Source: an uncultured archaeon (GTDB lineage: Archaea > Thermoproteota > Bathyarchaeia > Bathyarchaeales > Bathycorpusculaceae). From it: a stretch of 64,000 nt of DNA. The DNA lies in the NCBI GenBank assembly GCA_963782915.1, contig CAWALK010000014.1, positions 31,046 through 95,045 on the forward strand, read 5' to 3'. Positions 6,629 through 64,000 of this stretch are shown here, in pieces. The notes under the pieces were generated by a model. It was given only the letters and a program-made list of their open reading frames with translations. It was not told where the DNA came from and did no database searches. A program made the position numbers and the translations under genes. Every line of letters starts with the position of its first letter. Within the stretch, counting starts at the first letter, position 1.

Positions 6629-6660
6629 TCTTGTTTTTGTTTACCATTACAAGCTCCATT

Positions 6661-9242: not shown

Positions 9243-9257
9243 TGTTTTTCGTTCTCC

Positions 9258-9819: not shown

Positions 9820-9981
9820 ATGTACTGTGAAATAATGGAATGCGAGGTCACGGTGGAATTGGGCAAATGCAATTTGAAGGTAGGTTCATTGCTTGGCCAA
9901 AGTTCTTGCCCCTACAAAAACAGCGTTGCCTGCCCACTCAAAATAACTGGCGAGTTACAGCCAATTAGCCAGCCCAGTTGA
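9820..9981 (+). CDS. 53-aa Cys-rich mini-protein
   Basis: MYCEIMECEVTVELGKCNLKVGSLLGQSSCPYKNSVACPLKITGELQPISQPS*; GGAGG at 9808-9812. Confidence 0.55.
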   Translation: MYCEIMECEVTVELGKCNLKVGSLLGQSSCPYKNSVACPLKITGELQPISQPS

Positions 9982-10227
9982 GCTAAAATAATTAGTAGAG
10001 GTATTTTGCCCCATAATAGAGGTAACTAGGTTCCTGCCCGACCAAAAACAGCGTGGTTCGAATACATAAACAAGCCAAAATAAGACCAAATTAAGTCGTA
10101 TTTTATCCAAATAACGCCCTACAATAGCCATCGATAATAGAAACCTAAAAACAGTGGGAATCCATAGGTAGACGAACTAAACCAAAAAATAAGTTTGCCA
10201 TCGCTCTTGAAATTGGGTTTTTTAAAA

Positions 10228-10732
10228 TTAAAGTCTTTCTTCTTTTTCGATCTCTATTAGCTTTCCTGAATCATCGCCTAGCTCTAAACACTTCATCGCA
10301 ATTTGGTCTACGAAATAATCTAATATTGCAGTAAGGTCATTCGAAGTTATTTGATTACATTCCGAATAGCCAGTTTCTCTCTCAATACGCCAATAAGCAG
10401 AGTCTTTAGCAAGTTTCAGGCCAAAACTATAGATGATTCAAAATGAAACGTATGCTTCTAAATATTTTGTGCACTTTTTCCCTTGCACAATACTAAGCTC
10501 AAGGCTTTTTAATTCCTTTTTTAAGCATTATATTCATTATGTTCATTTGCAATAAGATTTTAGCAGATTCGAGCCCGCCACCATGGTCATCTATGCCAAT
10601 ATAATGACCCTGATAATTCGCTTCAATTATGCTGTTCCAATCCCTACTTTTGGGCATTTGATAAGTACGTCTAAATGTGGAAGTTATCGTTTCTCCATCA
10701 ACTTCTAGTTCACCAGTTATCGCTTTGCTCAT
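10228..10732 (-). pseudogene. Disrupted hypothetical protein
   Basis: ORF 10499-10732 appears to continue in another frame through an in-frame TGA to ...KLIEIEKEERL* at 10228. Confidence 0.4.
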
Positions 10733-10873
10733 TTATTTCACAGGAGTTCTTCTTCTTTTGCATATTAACTTTTCCTCCAACAACAACCAAAAAACAGTTT
10801 AACCCCAACCCAAAACCCAAATGCTCAGACACAGCCACCTTACCATAGTTACTGGTAAACACTTAATAACTCC

Positions 10874-12166
10874 GTGCAATTCTTCAACTACCAAAGGAGA
10901 AAAAAACAATTGTTTCTCAACGACATCCTCCAAGTCATATATGCACCAAAAAAAGCATTCAAAAACATAATCACTAACCCAAAATATCTAGGCATAATCG
11001 TAATCCTAGTCTTATTCATGGGTCTACAATTAGGCTATGAAGCCTCCCAATTCAGTAAAGTCCACATTGAAACCACCTCGCCAGTAGCTGGTGTAATGCA
11101 GGACTATAACAACGCCACAAACTGGCAAAGCGGCCCAAACGTATCGTTAACAAATAACTTTAATGATTACTTTAACAACACGGTGTACTTGGCTGATTAT
11201 GCTCAATACTACTCATTATTTGGCAATAACAGTATGCAGATACAAGCTAACAACACAAACACCATCCTAGTAGCCCTGACAAACACATCGAACGTTGACT
11301 GCACAGCAAGCGGCTTCCAAAACCTCTCCATAACCATGAAATTAGTACAGCCACAGTCAGCACCCTCCAATGCAACTTTAACCCTCTACTCATTAGGAGA
11401 CGCTAACTACTACACCTATGACTTAACAGGCACATTATCCAGTGCAGATGCAATCAACCAATGGGGCAACCTAACCGTTCCATTGGGTCCAAACGCAACA
11501 GGTTGGACAGCATCAGGTAACCCAACATGGCAAAACATCACATCACTAACACTCCAACTAACCTACCCTAACAGCCAAGACATAACCGTCCGAGTCGGCG
11601 CATTATTCTTCCGAGGCGAATTCGTACAGCCACTCATCGCAAACGCAAGCGGATTCCTCTACACATTCCTGTTGCAATTCTCACTGCAATTCCTCGCTTC
11701 ATGGCTTATCCTAACAGGCATGATGTATGTGATGTTCAGAGCACTAAAAGGAACCGTGCCATGGAAACCAATCTTCATCGCAGCAGGCTTCGCCATGACC
11801 GTTATGGTTATCCGTGCACTAGTAAACGTCATTGCAACATTGACTCTGCCAGCACTCTACTATCCATACGACGCAGCATTAGGCGTAGTTTATGACACAT
11901 TCGGATCACTCAACTATCCAGCAGCATTAACTCTGCCAGTCGCGCAATCAGCAGCCGCCATAAGCAGCATCAGCGCCTCGATGGAAGCTTTCAAGGCAAT
12001 CCTAACGGGCATGTTCATAGTATCCTACATTTGGCTAGCAGGCTTAGCTGCTTTGATAGTCAAGGAACTACAACCAACATACACAACCATGAAGTGCCTG
12101 CTAATCGCCGCTGTAAGCGTCGGTGTCACCCTTCTGGTGCTGTTCCTCTTCATCGGCTTTGTTTAG
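10874..12166 (+). CDS. Yip1-like membrane protein with inserted extracellular beta-sandwich domain
   Basis: N-terminal VIYAPKKAFKNI motif, TM helix, N/T-rich ectodomain and multi-TM C-terminus; true start probably the TTG near 10910. Confidence 0.65.
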   Translation: MQFFNYQRRKKQLFLNDILQVIYAPKKAFKNIITNPKYLGIIVILVLFMGLQLGYEASQFSKVHIETTSPVAGVMQDYNNATNWQSGPNVSLTNNFNDYFNNTVYLADYAQYYSLFGNNSMQIQANNTNTILVALTNTSNVDCTASGFQNLSITMKLVQPQSAPSNATLTLYSLGDANYYTYDLTGTLSSADAINQWGNLTVPLGPNATGWTASGNPTWQNITSLTLQLTYPNSQDITVRVGALFFRGEFVQPLIANASGFLYTFLLQFSLQFLASWLILTGMMYVMFRALKGTVPWKPIFIAAGFAMTVMVIRALVNVIATLTLPALYYPYDAALGVVYDTFGSLNYPAALTLPVAQSAAAISSISASMEAFKAILTGMFIVSYIWLAGLAALIVKELQPTYTTMKCLLIAAVSVGVTLLVLFLFIGFV

Positions 12167-12278
12167 CCGATCCCACACTATTTCTTTTTTACTTTTTTTG
12201 TCTTTTACTGTTTAGTTAGCAAGATTTATATCGTTGAAAGAGGAAAAGCGTTAAGCGAACAGTTCGAAGTGAAGTAAA

Positions 12279-13001: not shown

Positions 13002-14959
13002 GTGCAATTCGAACTTGTAGCGCCATACAAAATCTCGCCTGGACAGGAAGCCGCAGTTGAGCAGCTAACCAAAAATTTCGAGGCGAAAGAGAAGCAGACG
13101 CTGTTGGGTATTACTGGCAGCGGCAAAACGTTTGTCATGGCAAACGTGATCAACAAGCTTCAGAAGCCCACGTTGATTCTGGCTCATAACAAAACCTTGG
13201 CGGCACAGCTTTATGGCGAGTTAAAGGAATTGTTTCCGCATAATCGAGTTGAATTCTTCATAAGCTTTTACGATTATTACCAACCCGAATCCTATTTGCC
13301 CGCACAGGACATGTACATCGAAAAGGACTCCTCAGTTAACGATGAAATAGAAAAAATGCGAATGCACGCCGTCTCAAGCATCGTTAGCCGCACCGACACA
13401 ATCATTGTTGCTTCTATCAGTTGCATCTACAGCTTAGGCAACCCCGACGACTTCCGCACCATGGCAATGAAACTCCAAGTCGGCGAACAAATGAACCGCC
13501 AAAAACTCATCGCCTCATTGGTGGATATGCAGTATGAACGCAACGACATGGTACTGGAACCTGGCAGGTTCCGAGTAAGAGGCGACACAGTCGACATAGT
13601 GCCCTCCTACGAAAACGACATCTTAAGAATCGAACTCACAGGCAACACTATAAGCAAAATAAAAGAAGTCCACACCATAACGGGCAACGTCAAAAACAGC
13701 CTCGACACACTCACCCTCTACCCGGCACGCCAATACGTTGTCCCCGAAGAGAAACACGCCCTCGCCCTCGAACACATCCAACAGGAACTCGAGGCACAAT
13801 TGCCCAATCTTCCACCGCTTGAAGCACAGCGGCTAAAACAACGCACAAACTACGACTTAGAAATGATCCGGGAAGTCGGTTTCTGTGCGGGCATGGAGAA
13901 CTACAGCCGCCACTTCGACGGACGCAAACCCGGCATGCCACCTTTCACGTTGATAGATTATTTCCCCAAAGATTACTTACTCATTATCGACGAAAGCCAC
14001 CAAACAATCCCCCAATCCCGTGGCATGTACAACGGCGACTACGCACGCAAAAAGAACCTCGTTGATTTCGGTTTCCGCTTCCAAGCGCATTGGATAATCG
14101 TCCATTGCAGTTTGATGAGTTCGAGGGCAAAATGGGCAGAGTCCTCTTTGTCTCAGCAACCCCTGCTGAATATGAACTGGCAAAGAGCGGTCCACCAGTC
14201 GAATTAATCACAAGACCAACAGGGCTTTTGGACCCTGAGGTGGAGATGCATCCGATTGAGGGGCAGATGCAGCATTTGATGGCTGAGGCTAAGAAGACGA
14301 TTGAACGGGGCGACCGCGTGCTAGTAACGACTTTGACGAAGCGTATGGCTGAAGACTTAGCCGATTACCTCGTCAAAGAAGGCTTCCGAGTACGCTACAT
14401 GCACAGCGAAATCGAAAGCTTAGACCGCATAGAACTCATACGGCAACTCCGAGTGGGCGATTACGACATCCTAGTGGGCATTAACCTGCTCAGGGAAGGC
14501 TTAGACATCCCCGAAGTCGCCTCCATATTCATCTTAGACGCAGACAAAGAAGGCTTCCTACGAGACGAACGCAGCCTCATCCAAACCATCGGACGAGCAG
14601 CACGCAACGTCAACGGCAAAGTCTACCTATACGCCGACGTGCAAACCAAATCAATCCAACGCGCCATGGAAATCACCTATTACCGCCGAAACCTCCAGAA
14701 ACGCTTCAACGAGAAATATGGCATCACACCAACAACCATCATCAAGTCAGTCTCAACCAAAGAGAGCACTATCAAGGGCACAAAGCACTTAGCGAAATCC
14801 GATATTCAACGCCAAATGATCGAGTTAGACGCAAAAATGAGGGAAGCCGCCGAAAAACTGGAGTTCGAAAAAGCCATCCAACTGCGTGATGCGATTGCTG
14901 AGCTGCAGAAGTCATTGGCTCATAAGCTGGAAAATGAAGCGGTTAAACCCGAAATTTAG
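13002..14959 (+). CDS. uvrB: Excinuclease ABC subunit B (frameshift near 14080)
   Basis: GITGSGKT, HNKTLAAQLY, SFYDYYQPE, DESH, GINLLREGLD, QTIGRAARN and a C-terminal UVR domain. Confidence 0.96.
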
Positions 14960-31942: not shown

Positions 31943-31979
31943 TGGAAGTAGTCGGCGCTATACCCCTACGACTACTATA
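31943..31979 (-). repeat. Solo GTAG-type palindrome (TAGTCG stem)
   Basis: GGAAGTAGTCG-gcgctataccccta-CGACTACTA, near-identical to 54251-54289. Confidence 0.75.
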
Positions 31980-48285: not shown

Positions 48286-49689
48286 TTATTTGGTCTTTTT
48301 CTTGCTTGCTTTTCTAATGGTTACAAATACTGCAATCGAAATTAGAATGCTTGCTCCAAGGAAATAGTAGCCTATTGAATTTTGGCTAAAAACCGATGAA
48401 GGGCTTGGTGTTGGTGTTTGAAGTTGCCATGCGGATTCGTTACCTGCTGGATTCTGTGATGGTATAGTCTGTGCATCTGGAATCAGTCCAGTATCGTTCC
48501 AATAAAGAATATTTTCATAGCCTATTTGCTCAACGGTCTGGCCTGCTCTTGGGTAGATGATGTCTAGTTTGGGTCCAAACATTTGCAGTAGGGTAGCGAT
48601 AGTCATTCTAATGTTGGTTGTAAAATTCCTTGATCCTTCAGCGATGTTAAAATCTGCGTTCCATAACCCCCAGATCGTATCGTTTGGACTACGGAACCCT
48701 TCGCCAAAGCTGTCTGGAAGAACATACACTGATCTGGCGGCTGTGGGAGTTGGCGTTCTTGGGTTTGTTTGTGTGTATTGCCAAAACTGTTTCATGGCGT
48801 CAAAATGGTCTTGCTGAAGAACGTTCTCTGTCCAGTTTTTGTTGCTGTCGAATACTATGATGTATTTTGCGCCGTTCTGATATGCGGCTACCATATCTTG
48901 GTAGAGCCCAGGGCCTGACTCCATGTAGGGTGGTTGCTGGTACGCCCAGGTGATCATGATACCCCAGTCTTTATCCATGGCTGTTGCTGCTCCCCTGACA
49001 AGAGCAGTGTTTAGTTGGCGACTGTAGTCTTCCCAGCCGCTTTTCCAGCCGTACTCTGCAAATATGGTGTCGTAGCCGGCTTGATAATCAAACCAGTATA
49101 AACCGTAATCTGAAGTAAATAATTGTAGGTTTGTTTGGTCCTTTAAGTTTATGCCTATTGAGTAGGGTCCGCTGCGTAGGTACCAGTTTATGGTGTTGAC
49201 GTATCTGTTGGCTGCGTCACTGAAGTTTTTTGCATAGTAAAATGCTGGGTAGTTTGCTTGATCTAGCTGTTTTCCTCCAGGTTCATCATAGAAATAGATC
49301 CCCAAAAATTTTGTGCCAAAATTAGCCGTTGCATTTCTGAGCCATGATGCTGAAGGATAACCCGGATCATCAGAGTAAACTATGAAACTCAAACCTTTTT
49401 CAAAGACATATTCGCTTATGTAACTAAGCCTAGTTTCATTGTAGATCGGTCGACTATGGTTTCCTTGGACTACTGGTCCATAGCAGCCGATTACAAACAA
49501 ATTAGTGTAAGAGCTGACTGTGTCAATGATCCTTAGCGTCTCATCTAAGTTTTCGAAGGCAACATCAACTCCGAAGTAGAGGGGTGTAGACGTCTCCGTA
49601 GTGTTGGCTGTTGTTAGTGGTGCAAAGTTTAAGGTGAAACTGCAAATTAGCGTAAAAATTAGCAGAATTGTTAGTTCTTTTAATTTCAT
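48286..49689 (-). CDS. Membrane-anchored putative glycoside-hydrolase-like (TIM-barrel) protein
   Basis: Signal peptide, FLGIYFYDEPGG, LFTSDY.LYWFDY, C-terminal TM; paralog of 52833-54152. Confidence 0.6.
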   Translation of the reverse strand: MKLKELTILLIFTLICSFTLNFAPLTTANTTETSTPLYFGVDVAFENLDETLRIIDTVSSYTNLFVIGCYGPVVQGNHSRPIYNETRLSYISEYVFEKGLSFIVYSDDPGYPSASWLRNATANFGTKFLGIYFYDEPGGKQLDQANYPAFYYAKNFSDAANRYVNTINWYLRSGPYSIGINLKDQTNLQLFTSDYGLYWFDYQAGYDTIFAEYGWKSGWEDYSRQLNTALVRGAATAMDKDWGIMITWAYQQPPYMESGPGLYQDMVAAYQNGAKYIIVFDSNKNWTENVLQQDHFDAMKQFWQYTQTNPRTPTPTAARSVYVLPDSFGEGFRSPNDTIWGLWNADFNIAEGSRNFTTNIRMTIATLLQMFGPKLDIIYPRAGQTVEQIGYENILYWNDTGLIPDAQTIPSQNPAGNESAWQLQTPTPSPSSVFSQNSIGYYFLGASILISIAVFVTIRKASKKKTK

Positions 49690-52507: not shown

Positions 52508-52740
52508 AGCAACCTATTAACGGGTAGGAGAAGTGCAAATTTTTCAACCGTCTTCTTTCAATACCTTGGCCTAAGATAGACCAACAAGGGCCGCTTCTTT
52601 GGTTTTGGTTTAGGGTAGTAGTCTAGCAAATTTCGCAGACCACTACTTCTAACTTGGCAGTTTGTCGATTTCTTCTTTGTGTGCTACAACTTGCAGGCAG
52701 TATTTTGATTGTAGTTATAGCTTAGTTGATGATGACTGGT
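52508..52740. repeat. REP/BIME-like palindrome cluster 1
   Basis: GGTAGGAGAAG-N-TCTTCTTTCAA (52523-52561) and GGTAGTAGTC-N-GACCACTACTTCTAA (52614-52652); linkers homologous to 58245-58370. Confidence 0.75.
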
Positions 52741-52832
52741 ATTTTTTTGCGGTCGCTTTCTCGATGGCGAAATGTAAAACTATTCGATCACCCAGACAAG
52801 TTTAAAATATCTTTATTCCAATAAGATGGTTA

Positions 52833-54152
52833 ATGCAATCTCGATTGTGTGGTTTATTATTACTACTTATACTGATTGGCTCTGTGCTTTCAAGTGTTCT
52901 TCCGTTTATTGGTGTTCAGGCTGAGAGTATACCTGATGTTTTTGTCGGAGTCGACATAGCATACGGTGGCGTCGACGAGGTTAAACAGCTAGCTGATGAG
53001 GTTGGTTCATACACTAATCTTTTTGTACTCGGTTGCACCGCTGTAACCCAAAACCGGCTCAAGCTTGAAGAAGCTTGCCAATATCTTTTTGAAAAGGGCT
53101 TGTTTTTTATCGTCTATCAGGAGTACCCTGTGGATTATAGTTGGCTTAATGTGGCTAAATCGGAGTGGCTTGAGATCGCTAAGACCCGTTGGGGGAGCCA
53201 TTTTTTGGGTTTTTATTATACAGATGAGATTGGAGGGCGGCAGTTAGATCGTGCTTCTGGTTGGATGACTGTTAAAGAAGCTGATAACTACCCTGATGCA
53301 AATAGTCAGTTTAACTCTGGGGCAGGTTCTGCTGTAAGCTGGTTTAGAGATGGTTATTCTGGCGGTAATAATGTTTCTTTGTTTACCTCGGATTATGCGC
53401 TTTATTGGTTTGATTATCAGGCAGGTTACGATGTGGTTTTAGCTCAGTTTGGCTGGAACTATAGTCGGCAAATAAATATTGGTCTTTGCAGAGGTGCCGC
53501 AACCGTGTTAGGCAAAGAATGGGGGGCAATGATAACTTGGACTTACAAGCAACCGCCATACATAGAGTCGGGTGCAGAGCTTTACAATGATCTTTTGTTA
53601 GCATATGACAGTGGAGCAAAGTACATTGTGGTTTTTAATTCAAACAAAGAATATACAGAGAATATTCTTGAAGAGGAACATTTGGATGCTCTAAAGCAAT
53701 TTTGGCTATATTCTCAGCTGAACTCGAGAAAAACAAGTTCGGTTAATGAGCGAACCGCATATGTGCTTCCTAAAGATTATGCGTATGGTTTTCGTGGTCC
53801 AGGTGACAGTATTTGGGGGTTATGGGGAGCAGACAACTTGTCGAATCCAATTAGCATAGATTTAAGCGGTGCCCTTCAAGAATTCGATTCTAAGCTTGAC
53901 ATAATCTATGAAGATGCAGGTGGACTCGGAGGCAAACAGGAGTATAAATCATATATTTATTGGAACAACTCAAGACTCATCTCTTCGATACCTTCAGTAT
54001 CCGCTACAAATTCATTTAATGACAACGAGTCATTTAGGTCTCAAGAGATTCCACTGTATAGTTTTTTGCAAATCAATCTTATGGTCGTTTTGGTAATTAT
54101 TGCTGTGGCTTTGGCAATCTTGGGTTTTATTCTCATTCGTAAAAAAATATAG
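52833..54152 (+). CDS. Membrane-anchored putative glycoside-hydrolase-like protein, paralog of 48286-49689
   Basis: FLGFYYTDEIGGRQLD, LFTSDYALYWFDYQAGYD, WGAMITWTY.QPPY.ESG, GAKYIVVF. Confidence 0.6.
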   Translation: MQSRLCGLLLLLILIGSVLSSVLPFIGVQAESIPDVFVGVDIAYGGVDEVKQLADEVGSYTNLFVLGCTAVTQNRLKLEEACQYLFEKGLFFIVYQEYPVDYSWLNVAKSEWLEIAKTRWGSHFLGFYYTDEIGGRQLDRASGWMTVKEADNYPDANSQFNSGAGSAVSWFRDGYSGGNNVSLFTSDYALYWFDYQAGYDVVLAQFGWNYSRQINIGLCRGAATVLGKEWGAMITWTYKQPPYIESGAELYNDLLLAYDSGAKYIVVFNSNKEYTENILEEEHLDALKQFWLYSQLNSRKTSSVNERTAYVLPKDYAYGFRGPGDSIWGLWGADNLSNPISIDLSGALQEFDSKLDIIYEDAGGLGGKQEYKSYIYWNNSRLISSIPSVSATNSFNDNESFRSQEIPLYSFLQINLMVVLVIIAVALAILGFILIRKKI

Positions 54153-54250
54153 GCAATGAAGAACTCGAGAAACCATAGACGTGGTTGACAAACAATTATA
54201 CCTTAGCATTTTTCGGGAGAACGGACTGAGCGATGGCAAGGAGCGAATGC

Positions 54251-54535
54251 TTAGAAGTAGTCGACGCTACACCCCCTACGACTACTACCAACAAAACAAG
54301 ACCAAACGATTTCAGTAGTAGAAAAAAGTGCAAATTAACCAAAATTCTTCCTTCAATTGATTCACCACTTAAAAGAACAACAACGGACTGCATTGCATTG
54401 TTGTTCTACCGACCAAATCACAAGCAACCAATTAACAGGTAGATGAAGCTGTCTTCGGCAACCTCTTCTACCAATGAATACAGCCGACAACTGAAAGAAC
54501 AACAAACAAAATTATTCAACAGTTGCTGTTCTACC
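54251..54535. repeat. REP/BIME-like palindrome cluster 2: five units in alternating orientation
   Basis: Units at 54251-54289, 54317-54356, 54369-54410, 54438-54474 and 54491-54535. Confidence 0.8.
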
Positions 54536-54571
54536 AGACAAATATTCAGTGGACAAAATTAGTATACCTTA

Positions 54572-54636
54572 TCTAGAATGGTTTAGGATACGTGCCTGGG
54601 GCTTACGCCCGATCCGGGTTCAAACCCAGCGCCCCA
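54572..54636 (+). pseudogene. Decayed tRNA-Pro(GGG) lacking the 5' acceptor strand
   Basis: TCTAG..TGG..TAGGAT D-arm, CGTGC-CTGGGGC-TTACG anticodon arm, CCGGGTTCAAA-CCCAG T-arm, 3' GCCCCA. Confidence 0.65.
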
Positions 54637-54836
54637 CAATCCACGGTCTCGATTAGGTATATTATTTGTTGCCATCCTCCATGTCCTGCAAACTAAAAAC
54701 AATCCTTAAGGTTTTGTTGTCCCCTGCAGAAAAAGCGTATTCTATATAAGGCGCCATTTTCAGAGGAAAGATAGGTAAAGCTCGAGAATCGGGCTAAAGT
54801 TTTAAAACTTCTTTATCTTGCTATCGAGGTTAAACC

Positions 54837-55265
54837 GTGATATCGGACATTTCTAACAAAGTAGGAAAAGCTTCCAGAAGCATCATTCTGCTCGCCATAT
54901 TGATGATTTTGAACGTCGTAATAATTATCCTTTTAACTCCAATCGGCTTTGAGACCCGCCCGCAATCCGCCTTAGAGCCCTTAGGCTACATAGCGATTAC
55001 CAGCATTTTTATCGGTCTAGCACTGGATCTGGCGTCAATCGTGCTTCTCGTCAAAAGAGTTAGAGTTAGATTAGCTTCAGGACTATCGATCGTCAGCTCA
55101 ATCATGTTCTTCCTGATCATTTTCGTAGATCGAACTGGATCCTTCTTTTCGGTGCCGATCCCAGAAGCAATCATTACCCTCGAATACCTCTTCATTGCTG
55201 TGCTAATCCCAACTCTTATTCTAGCATCGAAAGTCTACGTAGACAGTAAGCCGGCTTCAAGCTGA
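54837..55265 (+). CDS. Four-TM membrane protein
   Basis: LLTPIGFETRP and DRTG.FFS motifs; hydrophobic segments. Confidence 0.65.
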   Translation: MISDISNKVGKASRSIILLAILMILNVVIIILLTPIGFETRPQSALEPLGYIAITSIFIGLALDLASIVLLVKRVRVRLASGLSIVSSIMFFLIIFVDRTGSFFSVPIPEAIITLEYLFIAVLIPTLILASKVYVDSKPASS

Positions 55266-55534
55266 TTTCTGTCGACTTTATGGTGCTGGCGCAACCATTT
55301 CTCTGGATTGAGGCATCTTACTTCAAATCTTCTTGGGGTTGTACGGCAAAACATAGGTCTCAACTTGGAAACCATAACGCAAGAATGCAAAAACCAATCC
55401 CAACAAACAGGCGTATACTGAAGATGCGCTCGCCCAAAACCTACAAGAATAGGCGCGAAAAAGCTCCATAGATACATTGTTATAGAAGTTGACGATGCAT
55501 CGCCACCTATGACGACTACTGCCAGCAAAACAGG

Positions 55535-55687
55535 ACACGCCAACTCATCGAGAACTGCGAATGCAAAGACGACTGCCCCTCATGCATATACTCACTAAAA
55601 TGCGGAAACAAAAACCACCTACTAGACAAAAAAGCCGCAAGCATTATCCTGAAGCAGCTCTTAAAAGGCTCGTTAAACAAGAGATAA
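55535..55687 (+). pseudogene. C-terminal DUF1998 (Zn-binding) fragment of an Hrq1/SftH/YprA-type helicase
   Basis: Manual translation [43 protein letters not shown]; no helicase core upstream. Confidence 0.75.
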
Positions 55688-55816
55688 TTTTATCACAAAA
55701 TCGACAAATGCACTTTCTAAAGACGACGCCGCTCTTGTAATATCTAATAAAAAATTCGAAGTAATATGAAATATTAGCGCTAAGCGGCTCAAAACCATTA
55801 TGTATGATTTTATGGC

Positions 55817-55853
55817 GAAAACCCTTTAAGTAGTCACTACCTTTCAGTAGTGA
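55817..55853 (+). promoter_or_regulatory. BRE/TATA followed by palindromic operator
   Basis: GAAAACCCTTTAAG, then TCACTAC-CTTTCA-GTAGTGA ending 9 bp before the GTG start. Confidence 0.5.
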
Positions 55854-55862
55854 ATTGCGGTA

Positions 55863-56492
55863 GTGTACAAATTGACTTTGACCATAAAAAAGGAAGAAGA
55901 ACGCACCGTCTCCAAAGGCGGCAACGCCTCGTTACTCTATCTGCCAAAAGAATACTTTACACCGGGCGAAAAAATAAACTCACAACTTGAAATAGACCCA
56001 GACGGCAACCTCAAAATGGTCCTAACCAAGCGGCTCTTCCATTTTACATGCGATAGCATAAAGAAACTATTTGGAAACAACGCTACCGTCGAATATGATA
56101 AAACAATCGCAGACACCAGAATTTTTAGCGCTACACAAGGAAACATAACGCTAAATTGCACCAAATCAATGAGGGATTTAGAACCAACATATGTTACCGT
56201 TACAAAGCGGTATGAGCAAGTAAAGTCACCTCAAGAATATGGTAAGCTTGCCGAGTCTATGAGTGGATTGTCGAAAAGTAACTTTGATGTTTACTTGGAG
56301 CCTGAGGGTGATTTAGAGTCGTTAAATATCTACAAAAACCCGCAGAAATACAAGCTGAAAGATCAATCGGAAGCAATAGACGCATTGAATGCGACCGATC
56401 GAAAAATTGGTTTTTCGCTTGTTATACGATTTAACAGCAAAAATAACACTGAAGAGCAAATTAGATCGGCAATAAAGCAGCTCAAATCCTAA
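55863..56492 (+). CDS. AbrB/MazE-like N-terminal domain protein
   Basis: ERTVSKGGNASLLYLPKEYF swapped-hairpin pattern plus a 150-aa C-terminal domain. Confidence 0.55.
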   Translation: MYKLTLTIKKEEERTVSKGGNASLLYLPKEYFTPGEKINSQLEIDPDGNLKMVLTKRLFHFTCDSIKKLFGNNATVEYDKTIADTRIFSATQGNITLNCTKSMRDLEPTYVTVTKRYEQVKSPQEYGKLAESMSGLSKSNFDVYLEPEGDLESLNIYKNPQKYKLKDQSEAIDALNATDRKIGFSLVIRFNSKNNTEEQIRSAIKQLKS

Positions 56493-57058
56493 AAGCCCAG
56501 TTTCTCTTTGATGAGCAAAGCAAGGCTTTTTATTACTTCGTCAGCTTTGGGGGTTCTATTCAATCCTATCAATGTTGCCCTGATAGGGGCTTTGTTAATT
56601 ATCTTGCCTTCGCCGTTTAACTTTGAAACAGCTATACAGATTACAGGCAGCTGTAGTTCCATAAAGAGTCGTTGCCAGTTCTTTATTTCGTCTATGCAGT
56701 CTTCACGGCATAAGATAATGGCGTAGTTTGCTTTTTCAGCAATAGTTTTAGATTCAGATGTAATCTTGCCTGGCGCGTCACCGATGACGATTGCATGTCT
56801 TGTAGATGCTTCCTCAAATAAGGCAGCGGCCGTTTTTGCAAGCTCCGGTGTCCAATCCTTTTTAGTGCCTTGTCGCTGTTCCCAACCTTTCGTGCCTCTT
56901 ATGAATTCAAGGGTTGGGCTAGCTAAATCTCGGTCCTCGGCGTATGCGTCGACTCCAAGCGAGCGCAATGCCATCGCCAAACTCTCGGTAAGGGTACTTT
57001 TTCCTGAATTAGGTGGACCACCGATGATGATTCGTACGGGCAAAGTTACCAACATCAA
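56489..57058 (-). CDS. P-loop NTPase resembling the ATPase domain found with Csx3/Crn3
   Basis: IGGPPNSGKST, K..WTPE, IVIGDAPGK, AIIL, W..LF..L.LP.I..S.L.G...P...L.GLNR. Confidence 0.6.
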   Translation of the reverse strand: MMLVTLPVRIIIGGPPNSGKSTLTESLAMALRSLGVDAYAEDRDLASPTLEFIRGTKGWEQRQGTKKDWTPELAKTAAALFEEASTRHAIVIGDAPGKITSESKTIAEKANYAIILCREDCIDEIKNWQRLFMELQLPVICIAVSKLNGEGKIINKAPIRATLIGLNRTPKADEVIKSLALLIKEKLGF

Positions 57059-57104
57059 CCGATTGGTGCATTGACGATAAAAGATTTGTCAGAATATCGC
57101 TAAA

Positions 57105-57269
57105 TTATGATCTGTAGCAGCCTTTGTGGTATAGTTTTCCGTACGTTTCAGGCGGAACTCGGTACTTGAAATTCTTAGACAGAACCTGACCACCCGTTGG
57201 ATAAGTACCGACTATAACAAACTCTTCCCCATCCTCAACCTTACGCTTACAAACTTCACAAACACCCAT
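57105..57269 (-). CDS. Small zinc-finger protein
   Basis: MGVCEVC...YHKGC; GGTGGT SD. Confidence 0.55.
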   Translation of the reverse strand: MGVCEVCKRKVEDGEEFVIVGTYPTGGQVLSKNFKYRVPPETYGKLYHKGCYRS

Positions 57270-57288
57270 ACAACCACCAATGGAAACT

Positions 57289-57375
57289 CTATACAATTGA
57301 AGCATAAATAATGCCGTCTGTGAGGTATGTTTTTACATTTCTTGTTGCCTGGTCTATGCGGGCTTTTTCTATCAT
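57289..57375 (-). pseudogene. Truncated N-terminus of a probable HEPN-domain partner gene
   Basis: ATGA-coupled to the upstream MNT gene; MIEKARIDQATRNVKTYLTDGIIYASIV*. Confidence 0.5.
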
Positions 57376-57989
57376 AGCATTTCCTCCAGTATCTTTAGCA
57401 GCGTCTCGGCGCCGTAGGGGACGATTCTGTTATCTATTGCTTCCCAAGCAACATTAGGCTTTTTCTGTTTAAGCAACTCCATAAATTCGCTGTTTGTTAA
57501 TATGGTCTCGTGGATTCCTATTGGGCTAACATGCTGGATGGAACCTACGGATGCTTCTGCTTCTTTTTCAAAGCTCCGTTCGGGAATGATTATGAGTATG
57601 TCTAAGTCAGATTTTGCTGATGCTGTTTCTTTTACGTTTGATCCGAACAGTATGATTGTAAAAAATGGTGAGGTGATTTTGGAGATTAAATCGTTGATGA
57701 GGAGTTCTATGTCTTTGTTTTTCTGGAAGAATCGGCTGGCTCTTATGCCTTCTATGTAGGCGAGGAGTGCGGTGTTGCCTTTGAGGTTGAGTCTGCAGTA
57801 TGTTACGGGAGGTTTTTTTTCTGCGCTTATGTATTTCTGGTCTGATAGGCGCATGGTCATAGTGTAGGTTATTTTGTAGTCTTTTCCGATTCCTTCTGAT
57901 ATTTGTCGTACAGTGAAGCTTTCCCTGATTTTTGAACTGAGGAATGAGAGGATTTCGATTGAAGTCTTGCTTAAGGGTTCTAAGTACAT
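57372..57989 (-). CDS. wHTH-minimal nucleotidyltransferase (MNT) antitoxin-like protein
   Basis: FTVRQIS..IGKDY wHTH; IILFGS......SDLDILII Pol-beta motif. Confidence 0.8.
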   Translation of the reverse strand: MYLEPLSKTSIEILSFLSSKIRESFTVRQISEGIGKDYKITYTMTMRLSDQKYISAEKKPPVTYCRLNLKGNTALLAYIEGIRASRFFQKNKDIELLINDLISKITSPFFTIILFGSNVKETASAKSDLDILIIIPERSFEKEAEASVGSIQHVSPIGIHETILTNSEFMELLKQKKPNVAWEAIDNRIVPYGAETLLKILEEML

Positions 57990-58101
57990 AATATTATGTA
58001 TCTAAGTACATAACTATTAAGCCTTACGCAAACCTATTGCCCGACACGTAATTCGGCACGCCCACTTTCCTACCACCTAAAAAGACAAAAACTCCTAACT
58101 A

Positions 58102-58782
58102 AGTAGAAGAAGCGCAAATTTTTCAACCTTCTTCTTTCAATATCTTGATCTTCAGAAACCCCTACAAGTTCATCTATAGCCGAAAACTGTCGTCTTTTTA
58201 GTTAGAAGTAGTAGAACAAAGAAAAATTGTTTGTACTTACTTCTAGATAGACCAACAGGGCGGCTTCTTCATTTCTGTTTTGGGTAGTAGTCGCTTAGCA
58301 AATTTCACAGACGACTACTTCCAACGTAATTTGACTTTGTGTGTAGTATGATTTAGTTGATAATGACCGGACAAAATTTCTCTGGTTATCATCAACCCAG
58401 TGGGGATAAGCATGGATTTCTTTAGCGGAGAGTAAAGTGCATTACCGATAGGCTGGCACCCTATAAAGTCGGTTCAGTAGGTAACTCAATAACAAACCCT
58501 AGAAGAAACAAAAACTGTATGTTGCACAGGGAATTTTTTCTTCTTTCGACTCAAGCTGATTCTGTGCAAGCCATCAATTAACGGGTAGAATAAGTGTCCG
58601 TGCGCAACCTTTTTTCGAGCTCAAAACGAGCATATGAAAAATAACTATTTAGAGTAAAGTATTTTCAAAAATTGGTTATTTTGATTTTCCTTACTTGCTG
58701 CATGGTTGTTATACTAACAAGTCATAAACATCCATTTAGGCAATAGAAGAAGTGCGTATTTTTCAACTTTTTTTTCTTTCAA
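58102..58782. repeat. REP/BIME-like palindrome cluster 3
   Basis: Units at 58102-58140, 58202-58246, 58283-58324, 58500-58549, about 58584-58617 (degenerate) and 58743-58782. Confidence 0.75.
58442..58482 (+). repeat. Bulged-hairpin direct repeat, copy 1
   Basis: TTACCGATAGGCTGGCACCCTATAAAGTCGGTTCAGTAGGTA; second copy at 60540. Confidence 0.75.
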
Positions 58783-59000
58783 TACTTTGAATTCTATTAG
58801 AATAGCCGCTGCTTAATTGTCCATCTTCCAGAGGCGTATTGGCGAAATTACCGCAATGATAATCCATCATTCAATCCCGATTTTAAGTGAATTTAATTAG
58901 GTTCAAATATTGCCGCCATCATTGTTTAGACGGATTTTGGAAGGCTTTTTTTAAAACAACTAGTATGTAAGCAAATTCCAATAATGAATGGCGGCGAAAC

Positions 59001-60416
59001 GTGATGGTTCAAGCTGTTTCAAACCAGGTTCTAAGTCGGCAAAGTCGATATCAAAAAGGTAAAGCTCTACGTGATCAAGTACCGTGGGATAACCATAGTC
59101 ATTGGGAACCCGCTAAAAACCGTCCTGACCCCCTAAGGCTTCTGCTTGAGCGAGACCAAGGACGCCTCCAGCGCCTACTGCCCATAAAGTACGGTCGCAT
59201 GTCAGCATCAACTTTCGCGTTTCTACGCGGTTCGGCAGCAATCATGGCAGCCGATCTTGCCACTACGCCTAACAGTGGAATTGAAACAATGCTTTGTGGG
59301 GATGCGCACCTGAACAATTTTGGCATTTTTGCTACACCTGAACGTAAACTGGTCTTTGACATGAATGACTTTGACGAATGTTATCCGGGTCCTTGGGAAT
59401 GGGATCTCAAACGGTTAGCTGCCAGTGCAGTCGTTGCCGGTCGAGAAAAAGGGTTCACTGAAACTGATAATTGGAAAATTGCCCAGGTTGTCGCTAAAAC
59501 TTATCGTGAGACGATGCATGCGTTTACCGAGATGTCAACTTTGGATGTTTGGTATTTTCATGTGGATGAAAATCAATTGCTGAAAGCTTTTGAATTCTCA
59601 AAGAAAGCATCCAAAGTTGCCAATAAAGCAGTCAAAAAGGCGCGCGGTCGAACACAAGAGCTAACTCTTGAAAAACTCACTGAATTAATTTATGGGCAAC
59701 GTCAATTTATCAATAATCCGCCGTTGTTAATTCGTTTAAACGAGATACTTTCTACTGATATTTTGCCTGAGGAAGAAAAAGTAAGGATTACAGAAAAGAA
59801 TCTTGAGAAGGCATGGTTTGATTACTTGAACAGTTTGGCCGAGGATCGCCGTGACTTGCTTTCCCGTTTCCGTATTGTGGATGGCGCTTTACGGGTTGTT
59901 GGTGTTGGCAGCGTTGGAACTCGCTGTGCCATCATGCTATTGCAAGGTGGGGGAGATAACGACATGCTTATACTTCAGCAGAAAGAGGCTGGGCCATCTG
60001 TACTGGAGAGGTATTTGCCTCATAGAGAATTTGCTAGTCAAGCGCAGCGTGTGGTAATAGGTCAGCGGTTGATGCAGGCTGCAAGTGATATTTTCTTGGG
60101 TTGGAGTCACGGTTTGGGTTCTGAGCTTCAGTATTATTGGCGTCAGCTAAAAGATATGAAAGGATCTATTGATGTCTCGTTTTTGGATTTAAAAGGATTT
60201 ATGATTTATCTTGAAACTTGTAGTTGTTGTTTAGCAAGAGCTCATGCACGAGCAGGTGACGCAGCAAAGATTTCAGGGTATTTAGATCAGGGTTCGCCAT
60301 TTGATAGTGCGATAGCAGGATTTGCTGTGGCTTATGCAGACCAGGCTGAGTTGGACCATCAAGCTTTGGTTGATGCTATTGATTCAGGTCGCGTTGAAGC
60401 CCAAACAGGCGTCTAA
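59001..60416 (+). CDS. DUF2252 family kinase-like protein
   Basis: YGRMSAS.FAFLRGSA, CGDAHL.NFG, FD.NDFDE, RVVGVGSVG.RC, YWRQLKDMKGS. Confidence 0.92.
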   Translation: MMVQAVSNQVLSRQSRYQKGKALRDQVPWDNHSHWEPAKNRPDPLRLLLERDQGRLQRLLPIKYGRMSASTFAFLRGSAAIMAADLATTPNSGIETMLCGDAHLNNFGIFATPERKLVFDMNDFDECYPGPWEWDLKRLAASAVVAGREKGFTETDNWKIAQVVAKTYRETMHAFTEMSTLDVWYFHVDENQLLKAFEFSKKASKVANKAVKKARGRTQELTLEKLTELIYGQRQFINNPPLLIRLNEILSTDILPEEEKVRITEKNLEKAWFDYLNSLAEDRRDLLSRFRIVDGALRVVGVGSVGTRCAIMLLQGGGDNDMLILQQKEAGPSVLERYLPHREFASQAQRVVIGQRLMQAASDIFLGWSHGLGSELQYYWRQLKDMKGSIDVSFLDLKGFMIYLETCSCCLARAHARAGDAAKISGYLDQGSPFDSAIAGFAVAYADQAELDHQALVDAIDSGRVEAQTGV

Positions 60417-60539
60417 CAATTGTTATAGCATACGACCCGTCACATATGATTATTAAACGGGTTTCTAAAAATATTTGAGCAAGAATAACAGCTCCCCCAA
60501 AATCTTGCTCGTTGCCCTTCTAACGTTAGCAGTCGAGCT

Positions 60540-60582
60540 TTACCGATAGGCTGACTCCCTAGAAAGTCGGTTCAGTCGGGTA
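60540..60582 (+). repeat. Bulged-hairpin direct repeat, copy 2
   Basis: TTACCGATAGGCTGACTCCCTAGAAAGTCGGTTCAGTCGGGTA. Confidence 0.75.
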
Positions 60583-60623
60583 CCACGTGCACTAAAGACA
60601 GTAGATATACGCAAATCGTATAA

Positions 60624-60785
60624 ACTGAACCTAAATATTACAGCGTATGTCAAATAGACGACGGCACGTTAATAGTGCCCGATCCAATTGCAGGCAAAAT
60701 CGAGTTGCCAAATAGGCTTGTTAAGATAATCGAAGAGCCTACAACTTTAAAAGAAATCATTGAAGGGATAAAAATTGCCAGTTAA
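60624..60785 (+). pseudogene. Internally deleted HD-phosphohydrolase-like gene relic
   Basis: ...IVPDPIAGKIELP..LVKIIEEP matches the DP..G.I.L....II..P N-terminus of SAMHD1/YwfO-like proteins, then stops while overlapping the next gene's start. Confidence 0.5.
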
Positions 60786-61206
60786 CCGCGATATTCCGTT
60801 ACTCATTGCAGTTTTTGGTTTACACCAAAACAAAACCATAGCTGGTAGAACACGTATCCAAAAAGAAATTTGCTTGCTGAAATACAAATCACAATTGCCA
60901 TTCACATTTGAGTATAAGTCATATTTCTATGGACCATACTCAGAAGAACTATCCGATACAATTAACACACTAGTCGGCGTAAAATTATTAGAAGAAACAG
61001 TAACTTCTGTTGGCTATAACTCCTACAGATATGACTATTCCTTAACAAAACAAGGCGAAGAACTGTTTACAAAGGTAAACCAAGAAGCCGGCGATTTAAT
61101 AAGCAAACTTCGAGCCGAGATAAACACATTTGAGGCAATGTCAACTCCAGAGTTAGTTGCAACAGCCAAGATGGCTAGTGGATTAAATTCTATCTGTAGT
61201 CATTAG
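60775..61206 (+). CDS. YwgA/DUF4065 (Panacea)-like wHTH antitoxin-type protein
   Basis: GRTRIQK...L, F.Y..YFYGPYSEEL, YSLT..G. Confidence 0.75.
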   Translation: MPVNRDIPLLIAVFGLHQNKTIAGRTRIQKEICLLKYKSQLPFTFEYKSYFYGPYSEELSDTINTLVGVKLLEETVTSVGYNSYRYDYSLTKQGEELFTKVNQEAGDLISKLRAEINTFEAMSTPELVATAKMASGLNSICSH

Positions 61207-61227
61207 CTGTCTCAGCCGTCTTAATTG

Positions 61228-61328
61228 GAAGAAGAAGTGGAAATTTTTCAACCTTCTTATTCTTTTAAGATAGGGTTCAGTTGAAAGAACAACAACAAAC
61301 CAATTTTTGCAACTGTTGTTGTTCTACC
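61228..61328. repeat. REP/BIME-like palindrome cluster 4: inverted pair
   Basis: GAAGAAGAAG-N-CTTCTTATTCTTTTAA, 12-bp linker, TTGAAAGAACAACAACA-N-TGTTGTTGTTCTACC. Confidence 0.75.
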
Positions 61329-61425
61329 AGTCGTTTATCATCTCTGTATAGCTTCGTAGCGTCAGTCCGTTATTTTTATCGACTCTGGGAAAACAGAGCA
61401 AAACTTAAGTGCAAATCGCTTAAAA

Positions 61426-62260
61426 ATGAGACAAGAGGTTAATGCTTTGCTAAGTGAGCTTGCGACAAATAATCAGACTATAGCCAGTAAATCAATCCTT
61501 AGGAAGCTTGGCTTTCGATTAGGACCAAGCGGCGTACATATCGGTCGAACAATAATGCTTGAGGAACTACAAACGCTATTTTCATGTGTTCCATCTCCAG
61601 ACGCTCAGAAAGAGGATTATATCAAGGCAATCATAGAGAATAATTGTTTGGGAAAGCGCTCGCAAAAGAATCGGGAGCTTTCGGCAAGGCATTTAATGAC
61701 ACTTTATTCACTCGACCCATCAGTTGCTACTTTTCAAGCCCTAAGGTATTTCTGGACACGAGATATCGGTAGCCAACCTCTACTAGCGTTGCTTAGCGCA
61801 TATTCACGAGATGGCTTGCTTCGAATGAGTGCTCCATATGTTTTGTCACTTAAGGAAGGTGAAGTTCTTGATCGAGTGGCTTTCAAAGAGTTTCTTGATA
61901 AGAAAGCATCCGGTCGCCTTAGCGAGTTCTGCCTGGATGGATTGGTTAGAAATGTTTGTGGAACTTTGATTCGGTCTGGTCATCTGCAGAGAACTGGAAA
62001 GGTTCGTTCAAGGGCTGTAGCAACTGAGGGTTCTGTAGCATACGCCCTTTTTCTTGGTTACTTGCTTGGGAAGCCGTGGAAAGGCATTATTTTCAACTGA
62101 GTTCATGCACTTGCTAGATTCTCCAGTGGAGGATTGTATTGAATTAGCGGAGAATGCATCATGTCGGGGATGGCTTTCTTTTAAGCGTTTAGAAGATGTA
62201 ATGGAAGCTCAATTTCCGAATTTGCTGACGAAAGAGCAGATGGCCCTGATCATTCAATAA
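61426..62260 (+). CDS. BrxA-like protein, copy 1 (frameshift near 62070)
   Basis: GFR...G.H..RT.ML.EL, AI...NCLGKRS, RHL..LY.LD, YALFLGYL; paralog of the gene directly upstream of brxB. Confidence 0.65.
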
Positions 62261-62341
62261 GGATAACGAACCTTTGATCGCCAAGCAGAAGAAAAAGCGC
62301 TTTAATTTATATCCTTCTTATGCTAACAATGGCTTGGTGAA

Positions 62342-62599
62342 TTGCCATTGAAGTGTCCAAGATGTGGCTCTGAATTACCTAATAAGCCCTCCAAAGAATG
62401 GTCTTTTAGAAAAGGCTACTATCAAGTTAAGGCGTATCCATGCTCCAACTGCAAGAAAACTACTTTTATGTATTACCATGAGGGCAAACTTGGCTTTACC
62501 ATACCCAAAATCTACAGTCTAAATTATTATCCGATAAATTACCGGTTTAGCACTCAAAATGATGATTATACCTTTGCTTTTATTGACAACAGGAGCTAA
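62342..62599 (+). CDS. Small zinc-ribbon protein
   Basis: CPRCG...KEW...Y.C..C; GGTGA SD. Confidence 0.6.
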   Translation: MPLKCPRCGSELPNKPSKEWSFRKGYYQVKAYPCSNCKKTTFMYYHEGKLGFTIPKIYSLNYYPINYRFSTQNDDYTFAFIDNRS

Positions 62600-62667
62600 A
62601 ATGCATTAATTTGAACCACAGACTTTCGGAAGACAATCTTGCAATAAGTAAATGTCTTATAGTTTGA

Positions 62668-63519
62668 CAGCTAATTTACACTCCATACGAGGGACTTAAA
62701 GTCAGACCTGTAGATGACCAATCGGAGAGATCAGAGGCATTCAAAGACCTGAGCAACTTTGGCTTCCGTTTCAGCTATGGTAGTGCGCATACCGCTCGAA
62801 CTATGATGCTTAAAGATTTACAACTTTTGTTAGAATATGTTCATAACGCTAATTGCCCAAAGGATTGCTACCTAAAAGCGATTATTGAAGATAATTGTTT
62901 AAAAAAACGTTCACAAAGAACACGTGTACTATCAAGTAGGCATCTTGTTTATTTGTACTCTCTCGAACCTGTATGTACGATTTTCAGAGCCTTAAGGTAT
63001 TTTTGGGCAAGGGATTCAAAGGGTCATCCACTTTTGGCGTTGCTATGTTCCTACTCTCGTGACAGTCTTCTTCGTGTAAGTGCTCCCTTTATCTTAGAGA
63101 AGGCTGAAGGAATGAACGTCAGTCGGCAATCATTCGAAGAATATATTGAAGAAAGAGAGCCTGGTCGTTTTAGTAGAGCTACTTTAAAGTCATTGGCTCA
63201 AAATTTAAACGCAACCTGGACTGATTCGCAACATTTAATAGGTAAAGCTTAGAAGACAAGAATTAAGGCAGTTGCAACAGCTGGACCTGTTTCTTATGCT
63301 CTCTTTCTGGGATATCTTTGTGGTGCTAGAGGAGAAGCGTTATTTTCAACTGAGTTCACAAAGATGTTGGATTGCTCCTCTGTTCGTTGTGTTGAGTTAG
63401 CAGAAGAGGCGAGTCGACGGGGTTGGATTACAGTTAAGCGCATAGGAGCAGTGATTGAAGTCCAATTCCCAAATCTTCTTAATGCTCAGGAAAGAGAGTG
63501 GATTCGTGAACAAAACTAA
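62668..63519 (+). pseudogene. BrxA-like protein, copy 2, with in-frame TAG at 63250-63252
   Basis: Frame is open from 62668 (FGFRFSYGSAHTARTMMLKDL). After the TAG it continues KTRIKAVATAGPVSYALFLGYL...FPNLL to TAA at 63519, collinear with copy 1. Confidence 0.7.
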
Positions 63520-64000
63520 AAGACTAACCCAATCCTATGGGCGATTTATCGCTGTGCCTTGGCAGGATGCTGCAGCTGCTCAGCGCGTCATCTTCTGCAT
63601 ATACAATGAAGAAGGATGAGCTTCAACTCAGAGCAAAGATTGACGAATTTGAGATAGTTACAAGGCAAGCAGGGCATGATTGGGCATTATTCGATCTAAC
63701 AGACTCATTTGCCAACTGGCTGGACAGCCAACGCTATAAAAAAAGCTACTTCAAGAAACCAAGCCTCATCTCCACTTTGCTTCCCCAATACCCTAGTTTA
63801 TATCAAAAAAGCATTCGAGACTTTCATTCAGGACAAGAACGCTACCGAAAACACCGTTGTAGCTCTAAAGGGAGTTGGTTCGCTTTTCGGTTTCTTGAAA
63901 GTTAAAGAAGTTGTCGACATACTGGCACCATTGGTGAAAGGAAGATTACTTGTGTTCTTTCCAGGTACTTATGATAATAACAATTACCGATTACTGGAGC
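63506..64000 (+). CDS. brxB: BREX protein BrxB (DUF1788), frameshifted, runs off the window
   Basis: GTG at 63506; IAVPW....QRVIF..Y, ELQLRA.IDEFE..T..AGH.W, GVGSLFGF, GRLLVFFPG.Y.NNNYRLL. Confidence 0.82.

Follow-up and report, generated by a model that had tools for sequence, protein, structure and literature searches.

Short imperfect palindromes that begin with GGTAG and recur in alternating arrays occupy intergenic spacers of a 64,000-nucleotide stretch of DNA from an uncultured archaeon of the Bathycorpusculaceae (Bathyarchaeia; contig CAWALK010000014.1 of assembly GCA_963782915.1, positions 31,046 to 95,045), which we call the window. We estimate at about 60% the probability that these palindromes, termed units here, are a clade-specific family of short extragenic repeats of one Bathyarchaeia genus, which resembles the repetitive extragenic palindromes (REPs) and bacterial interspersed mosaic elements (BIMEs) of bacteria, and which is probably non-autonomous mobile or recombinogenic DNA without a REP-associated tyrosine transposase (RAYT). 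The initial annotation of the window had proposed an archaeal REP/BIME-like family, and this proposal held: the units are dispersed, extragenic and GTAG-footed, fall into several classes, form alternating arrays and occur in Bathyarchaeia. The window is the terminal part of contig C14 of the source genome G000 (3.28 Mb, 25 contigs, 93.5% complete); other G-numbers denote congeneric genomes, C-numbers contigs, and L-numbers stretches fetched for comparison.

The units of the window are 39–52 nt long and share one grammar: GGTAG, an arm, a loop of 10–22 nt, the complementary arm, and CTTYYAA. Their arms fall into three classes, (AAG)n in class A, (AAC)n in class B, and GTAGTCG, of the GTA-GTA-GTC type, in class C, all with a period of 3 nt. 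Each of the 13 positions listed in the initial annotation holds a unit (52523, 54317, 54438, 58102, 58743, and 61228; 54369, 54491, and 61281; 31943, 52614, 54251, and 58283). The loops had been described there as mostly 14–18 nt long, which is too narrow a range. A covariance model, R1, made from a gapless seed of four units with 10 pairs and run over the window with filters off, recovered all 13 and added units at 58199(-) and 58500(+). Together with a degenerate 5' half-unit at about 58580, this gives two or three units in the window beyond the 13. The four-sequence gapless seed was used because MAFFT set the B class out of register; an nhmmer search started from 12 units aligned by MAFFT recovered little beyond the window copies and undercounts the family. 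The strict pattern GGTAG-N25-45-CTTYYAA occurred six times in the window against 0.75 expected, and none of 100 dinucleotide-preserving shuffles reached six. A structural scan alone (TAG..CTT foot, at least 8 pairs) gave 73 matches versus 40 and 54 in two simulated genomes, and because of this high background it cannot count members by itself. Rfam 15 at gathering scores found no known RNA family in the window, and ARAGORN found no tRNA there.

The best-preserved A-class unit lies at 58099–58143 on the plus strand (R1 score 51.6 bits; fold −4.4 kcal/mol). The A-class unit at 52520–52564 (+), with GGTAG GAGAAG ... TCTTCT TTCAA, scored 50.5 bits, and its stem is partly decayed. It is one of three A units, listed at 52523, 54317, and 58743, that we call decayed because they fold no better than shuffled sequences; the other two are those at 54314–54359 (+; 12.2 bits, E 1.4) and 58739–58785 (+; 25.6 bits), the latter with a decayed 3' arm. 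At 54435–54477 (+; 13.1 bits; −5.2 kcal/mol) there is an A-class variant whose foot (GGTAGA..TCTACC) is paired throughout, and at 58500–58545 (+; 10.4 bits; 10 pairs in the structural scan) an A-like unit with a 22-nt loop, absent from the initial list. Class C is represented by GGTAGTAGTCT ... ACTACTTCTAA at 52611–52655 (+; 47.3 bits; −5.3 kcal/mol as DNA, 4/200 shuffles as good), by a unit with a GGGGGTGTAGCG-type loop at 54248–54292 (-; 43 bits), which is 87% identical over 77 nt to C20:357096-357172 (BLAST), and by 58280–58327 (+; 40.6 bits; −7.3 kcal/mol), which with its upstream flank repeats 52574–52653 at 83% (BLAST). An outlying C-class unit at 31946–31977 (-), found by BLAST, the structural scan, and R1, is 91% identical to the core of 54254–54287, and a C-like unit at 58199–58247 (-; 13.7 bits; −7.0 kcal/mol, 3/200 shuffles as good) is the second of those missing from the initial list. 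The B-class units are GGTAG AACAACA ... GTTGTTGTT CTTTTAA at 54366–54413 (-; 16.8 bits; −9.0 kcal/mol, 0/200 shuffles as good), 54488–54538 (-; 10.8 bits; 9 pairs in the structural scan), and the second half of a tail-to-tail doublet at 61224–61331. This doublet has GGAAG...CTACC ends and consists of an A unit at 61224–61271 (+; 34.7 bits) and a B unit at 61278–61331 (-; 18.0 bits).

In the foot, GGTAG pairs with CTTYY through G-C and A-T pairs, a T.T mismatch, and then G-C or G.T, and the AA comes after. The A and the G of the tag are paired with the 3' foot, in contrast to a textbook REP. The feet, which the initial annotation had regarded as fixed, carry an exact GTAG in 10/15 window units; the others have ATAG, GAAG, or CTAG, and GTAG is conserved in relatives. 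When all sequence gathered was scored from the palindromic core alone, the foot mismatch was present in 34/42 C-class units; 19 of these 34 mismatched feet are GG/CT, and the G.T pairs favour one strand. The loops are AT-rich with T runs inside, and a GCAAATTT loop motif is common to the A and C classes, both in this genome and in other species. Folding of the units as single-stranded DNA produced the expected stem in 12/15 cases, and the folds of 6/15 were matched by at most 4/200 shuffles.

The initial annotation had also stated that both arms change together. We assessed this in a curated alignment, fitted to the R1 model and with hand-picked rows, in which 66 R1 matches were reduced to 47 at one per locus and then to 34 by dropping 13 without family arms. 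In these 34 rows, five of the eight inner pairs change on both sides with pairing kept (A-T/T-A 26/7, G-C/C-G 24/8, A-T/T-A 27/7, A-T/C-G 24/5, and G-C/C-G 18/7). Thus the statement is true between classes; within classes, the differences mostly represent decay, as in the comparisons of 52523 with 58102, which differ by two changes at non-partner positions, and of 52614 with 58283. Three arm classes can result from only a few events in which a palindrome has an arm replaced, such as the copying of one arm from the other. As the covariation is found only between classes and one-step arm copying is possible, the evidence for selection on structure is weaker than it looks, and weaker than had been claimed.

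The architecture of the arrays is that of BIMEs, with alternating classes, and loosely that of REP doublets forming hairpins (REPINs), in that a doublet is a common form. Spacers of the window hold two to six units, and orientation alternates in 7/9 neighbouring pairs. In the largest array the classes alternate as well (54248(-), 54314(+), 54366(-), 54435(+), 54488(-)), as they do in 61224(+)/61278(-), and the arrays of relatives are alike. The stretches 52524–52653 and 58103–58325 are copies of one segment of about 130 nt (BLAST). The A+B doublet of 61224–61331, about 105 nt long, has many matches of 76–95% identity in G010, G001, G012, and G023, and the same A(+)B(-) order was present in 16/18 fetched matching stretches, with a linker of 10–17 nt. 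Its inverted repeats are confined to the 5-nt ends, GGTAG/CTACC, and the inner feet; since the (AAG)n arms of A and the (AAC)n arms of B are not mutually complementary, it is not one long hairpin such as inverted copies of the same REP form in a REPIN. A larger B/A/C/B mosaic of 372 nt in G023 is 89% identical to one site of G010 and 79% identical to another, with unrelated flanks; its interior is conserved, and the loops of its end units are variable. Sub-families share a flank of 12–15 nt.

The family is not limited to the window. In the whole genome, R1 gave 20 matches at E<=10, about half of them in C14:83.5-92.4 kb and the others on C19 (three), C23, C20, C24, C2, C5, and C22, and BLAST together with motif-seeded structural scans found further copies on C9, C12, C20, C22, C23, and C24. 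This amounts to about 30 copies in the genome, of which about 14 are on other contigs (at least eight) and about half lie within one 9-kb stretch. The description of the units as intergenic was borne out: all 15 window units and 12/14 others (27/29) are outside open reading frames (ORFs) of at least 100 aa, which cover 79% of the genome. Among congeneric genomes, 14/24 had R1 matches at E<=0.1, with 1–44 matches each (44 in G023, 39 in G001, 34 in G010, 21 in G007, 16 in G012, 15 in G002, and 10 in G004), counts that leave out the B class, are capped at 150 scored candidates per genome, and sometimes include a palindrome on both strands. Only 2/16 genomes from other families of the order matched, weakly, with a model that, being trained on G000, favours near relatives. 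In a 26-row tree of MetRS, from which G002, G004, and G021 were excluded for broken or partial matches and in which G011 and G044, having no match, are missing, the genomes with at least 13 matches (G000, G001, G007, G010, G012, and G023) belong to one 12-row clade (support 93/86). This clade also includes G022, with three matches; the other clade has 0–2. When the exact C-class pattern was searched against one genome each of 185,579 species, 22 stretches were found, of which 18 were titled as Bathyarchaeia or Bathyarchaeota metagenome-assembled genomes (MAGs) and four were bacterial, about the level of chance. From this species-wide and clade distribution we conclude that the family is specific to the Bathyarchaeia taxon named in the initial annotation; it is common to one group of related soil archaea.

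Compared with the REPs and BIMEs of E. coli (Y, Z1, and Z2, with TnpA-REP/RAYT), the units are likewise short, imperfect, GTAG-footed, and extragenic palindromes whose classes alternate in mosaic clusters. They differ in being archaeal, in having tens rather than hundreds of copies and AT-rich stems with a 3-nt period, in their large loops and a foot partly paired around the T.T mismatch, and in that most carriers yielded no Y1/RAYT gene. The likeness to Pseudomonas REPINs lies in the inverted doublet with a short linker as the commonest form, here about 105 nt of A+B with GGTAG...CTACC ends, and in a clade-restricted distribution that looks vertically inherited; in contrast to those REPINs, which have a single-copy RAYT, the doublet combines two arm classes, one in each half, and a RAYT was not found. 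The available text on the GTAG super-family (Di Nocera et al. 2013, PMC3733652) describes stems of 5–13 bp, loops of 2–20 nt, frequent clusters and dimers, families that range from fewer than 100 copies into the thousands, and sub-families in which the stem changes are complementary; in the ranges of stem and loop, the clusters, the dimers, and the stem changes, our units are similar. There, however, the tag is described as unpaired and GTAG repeats are listed for bacterial phyla only, though supplementary species lists might include archaea. The same text describes CGTC REPs without a dedicated transposase, and in this respect the units are like the CGTC families, with no dedicated transposase in view here either. 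RepRanger reports REPs in archaeal genomes, thousands per genome, with a REP being any intergenic palindrome not predicted to be a terminator (PMC12306157); the present family, by contrast, is homologous and foot-tagged, and Bathyarchaeia are not mentioned in the accessible part of that paper. A literature search on Bathyarchaeia or Bathyarchaeota together with intergenic palindromic or miniature inverted repeats, supplements lying outside it, returned nothing relevant.

The initial annotation had further supposed that a Y1 HUH enzyme acts on the units in trans, as in a true REP/RAYT system, in which a single-copy transposase encoded elsewhere in the genome would cut and copy them. The GTAG foot, the mismatched hairpin, the several classes, and the BIME-like arrays are hallmarks of RAYT substrates according to the available text of PMC3733652, and G002 has both units (15 matches) and Y1 genes (10 matches), the distance between one of the latter and a unit on G002:C9 being about 3 kb. 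Against this, PF01797 (Y1_Tnp) had no match in G000, in a search that was positive in six control genomes including E. coli, and none in the carriers G001, G010, G012, G007, and G022, which together with G000 are 91–98% complete; the sole match in G023 is interrupted by two TAG stops. Y1 matches occur in 22/61 genomes of the genus, but they do not follow the units: G016 has seven with a single unit match, and at ten Y1 loci no R1 match better than E 0.16 was present within 1.5 kb, so none of these genes is flanked by units in the way that had been envisaged. Moreover, the Y1 genes of the genus are multi-copy, encode about 144 aa, and resemble ordinary IS200 transposases, the only Y1 subclass reported for Archaea in the text of PMC6006769 available to us. 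A RAYT system in this genome is improbable, and the supposition of such an enzyme failed. The subterminal hairpins of IS200/IS605 elements and their miniature derivatives are similar in their irregular stem and in that no target duplication is visible, and would be so in their recognition as single strands; here, however, there is no transposase gene between units, no parent insertion sequence (IS) was found for them, Y1 and OrfB_IS605 do not track them, and units are missing at Y1 loci of the genus. Near units, an IS110-family transposase gene was seen about 200 nt from a B-class unit (L129:333-378 and 587-1021; G007:C99), and a fragment of such a gene between two units (L052, about 14372–14602; G023:C1); some bacterial IS elements target REPs, according to the part of PMC1525189 available.

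Could the units instead act as RNA or in cis, as 3'-untranslated-region stabilisers, termination or processing signals, or small RNAs that are under selection and spread by duplication? The bias of G.T pairs in the feet towards one strand and the T runs in the loops would fit such a function, and 6/12 of the best loci in relatives lie between convergent genes, with some units beginning 5–20 nt past a stop codon (61226 after 61206; L046:5903 after 5898). However, orientation in the arrays alternates, independently of the gene upstream, the first unit past the gene at 52833–54152 being antisense, many copies are decayed, and 4/12 of the loci in relatives are divergent, on the promoter side; we consider this explanation unlikely. 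Its promoter variant, with the loop as a B recognition element and TATA box, was rejected on account of start-codon distances that are not fixed (310, 258, and 198 nt), and the terminator variant on account of the T run, which is inside the loop and not 3' of the stem. The reverse complement of the 3' foot resembles the 8-nt tag of archaeal CRISPR repeats, and a CRISPR origin was discarded because the units are not evenly spaced direct repeats. A role in double-stranded form, with units that bracket cassettes in flexible DNA in the manner of integron attC sites and are bound by a dimeric DNA-binding protein or acted on by a site-specific recombinase, is suggested by the position of units on either side of an accessory gene or a small gene group, both in the window and in the hot spots of relatives, by hot-spot genes without a DNA match in the five nearest relatives, and by the likeness to attC in sites that lie between accessory genes and conserve structure over sequence. 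A conserved foot with variable arms is reminiscent of attC logic. The units nevertheless alternate in orientation, with several per spacer, their foot halves are unlike R''/R' boxes, the Phage_integrase matches lie elsewhere, on C11, C23, and C18, with none on this contig, and a one-strand asymmetry (T.T and G.T) would be meaningless for a symmetric duplex site, so that we hold such a role to be quite unlikely.

It is also conceivable that no enzyme was needed, with arms of 3-nt period expanding by slippage, palindromes arising by template switching, and the products spreading by ordinary recombination and segmental duplication. The 3-nt period and variable repeat number of all three arm classes, a (TAC)n tract abutting a C-like unit in L013, and a low-depth contig with 3 nt missing in the arm at 61303 agree with this; what it leaves unexplained is why one foot is shared by three arm classes, why the GCAAATTT loop motif is conserved, and how doublets and mosaics 80–95% identical come to lie at unrelated sites in different species, and we give it a slim chance. 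Finally, a decayed local duplication, or chance palindromes confined to the window, could be suspected from the concentration of about half of the genome's copies within 9 kb and from the duplicated segment at 52524–52653 and 58103–58325. With copies on at least eight other contigs, in 14/24 congeners, and in 18 Bathyarchaeia stretches among the genomes of 185,579 species, this is scarcely credible.

We therefore return to the reading of the units as a clade-specific, REP/BIME-like family that is probably mobile or recombinogenic without being autonomous. Under it, the units would be DNA that spreads or is shuffled in the form of folded single strands, with the foot and the shape of the hairpin, and not the sequence of the arms, as the features recognised, and the mobiliser would not be a Y1 (RAYT/IS200) transposase in the genomes richest in copies. 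The length of the arms would drift by 3-nt slippage, and the units would mark flexible DNA and probably promote recombination there. Arm repeat number does vary between copies, which is a sign of 3-nt slippage. Among contigs from four low-share DNA runs, all short and of low depth, one is that which lacks 3 nt in the arm at 61303, and one contains a joint that is probably another locus; neither observation bears on expression or mobility. No RNA dataset was listed as containing the stretch. Side by side with this stands a (TAC)n microsatellite of about 20 repeats that abuts the 3' arm of a C-like unit (L013:1500-1575; G000 C23:76500-76575).

Several results weigh against this reading. The copies number tens per genome and not hundreds, the counts in relatives are subject to the bias of R1 described above, and the clade pattern is compatible with plain vertical descent. 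The foot mismatch, again scored from the palindromic core alone, was found in only 7/20 B-class units. As single-stranded DNA the hairpins are weak (−0.1 to −10.7 kcal/mol), 3/15 being no better than shuffles, and the covariation comes from an alignment that was fitted and selected by hand. No candidate mobiliser emerged among neighbouring genes or with the Y1, OrfB_IS605, IS110, and Y2 profiles, which were run across 24–60 congeners: among 310 ORFs from 38 stretches beside units, no family recurred across independent loci, and other transposases do not follow copy number (OrfB_IS605 in 0/25 genomes, Y2_Tnp in 2/25, and IS110 in 9/25, with none in G000, G010, and G012). The comparison of empty and filled sites, suggested in the initial annotation, gave no clean pair at two loci examined across 13–28 relatives, where the neighbouring DNA differs too. 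Upstream of metG, in the promoter region, a unit is present in G000 and in none of 28 relatives, and the neighbouring gene differs as well; in G023, units lie downstream of a 321-aa gene, and 12 orthologous loci have none, with flanks that also differ. Between near-duplicate contigs of the assembly, the differences comprise entire spacers and not individual units. No target-site duplication was visible at 16 doublet ends, which is compatible with single-strand mechanisms and proves nothing.

The window units are concentrated in five long unit-bearing spacers of a defence island (window 56489–63905), whose phage-exclusion (BREX) system runs off the contig end. The island encodes a Csx3-AAA-like ATPase (56489–57058, minus strand), an MNT-like nucleotidyltransferase (57372–57989, minus strand), a protein resembling the DarG C-terminus (60775–61206), a DUF2252 protein, two BrxA frames (61426–62100 and 62803–63252) with 3' parts that occur again at 62073 and 63331, and BrxB (63537–63905) at the contig end. 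The island genes had no DNA match in the five nearest relatives, and accessory genes are bracketed by units in relatives too. Beside the largest array there is a 3' fragment of a tRNA-Pro(GGG) gene (54572–54640, plus strand; about 69 of 79 nt), 85% identical over 72 nt to C23:176644-176713 (BLAST). The intact tRNA-Pro(GGG) gene (C23:176634-176712, ARAGORN) lies beside an integrase-like frame interrupted by a stop (C23:176160-176408), and the fragment has the appearance of an integration-site remnant at the island edge.

Additional repeats accompany the units. A repeat of about 210 bp with abundant GGGATGGG/CCCATCCC hairpins is present in at least seven copies of 82–93% identity (among them window 629–834, C24:81006-81218, C9:12361-12569, C22:78833-79044, C15:125188-125402, and C20:200-390) and often adjoins the palindromic units (C9, C24, C23). 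A separate hairpin, GTTGATAATGACC...GGTTATCATCAAC, is repeated at 58336–58402 and 911–975 of the window and at C22:78699-78747; it comes after the C-class unit at 58283 and, in decayed form, after that at 52614. Two unit-bearing spacers contain a 43-nt direct repeat of 88% identity with an ACCGA...TCGGT inverted repeat (58439–58481 and 60537–60579). In another spacer, a stretch of about 120 nt (55547–55665; also L013:2060-2180) can be read as the C-terminal fragment of a protein, rich in Cys (CxC...CPxC...C). This stretch, probably a gene relic, has copies of about 76–83% identity in G010, G001, G023, and G012. Elsewhere in the genome, a repeat of about 250 bp (C20:358620-358870) has at least 12 copies of 79–88% identity on C15, C17, C19, C20, and C22. 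The paralogous genes 48286–49689 (-) and 52833–54152 (+) encode proteins of 467 and 439 aa without a Pfam match; the product of the latter has a hydrophobic C-terminus, and this gene, unlike its paralogue, is flanked by unit-bearing spacers. Near-duplicate segments of 94–96% identity (C14:19979-30777 and C20:416019-426815; window 2268–12219 and C20:441740-451695) point either to a bin that mixes two strains or to duplication on a large scale. Parts of larger contigs are also present in several small ones, and between matching blocks the spacers are distinguished by entire inserts that bear repeats.

A bolder interpretation, to which we attach only tentative weight, is that the units are the archaeal counterpart of REPs, BIMEs, and REPINs that multiplies without Y1 or RAYT, driven by an unrecognised Bathyarchaeia enzyme that reads the GTAG-type foot and the hairpin. 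REP/REPIN–RAYT systems are treated as bacterial only in the available texts of the RAREFAN preprint, where REPINs and RAYTs are stated to be absent from archaeal genomes, and of PMC6006769 and PMC3733652. If this bolder interpretation is true, palindromic repeats with a foot tag have an origin or a spread that is not limited to Bacteria, and they can do without RAYT. The family raises the question of what multiplies such repeats without RAYT, a question that the bacterial CGTC families pose as well. It also raises that of whether repeats structure or destabilise the flexible genome, in which they here fill the spacers of a defence island. For the organisms themselves, the family is a compact marker of one Bathyarchaeia clade in soil metagenomes.

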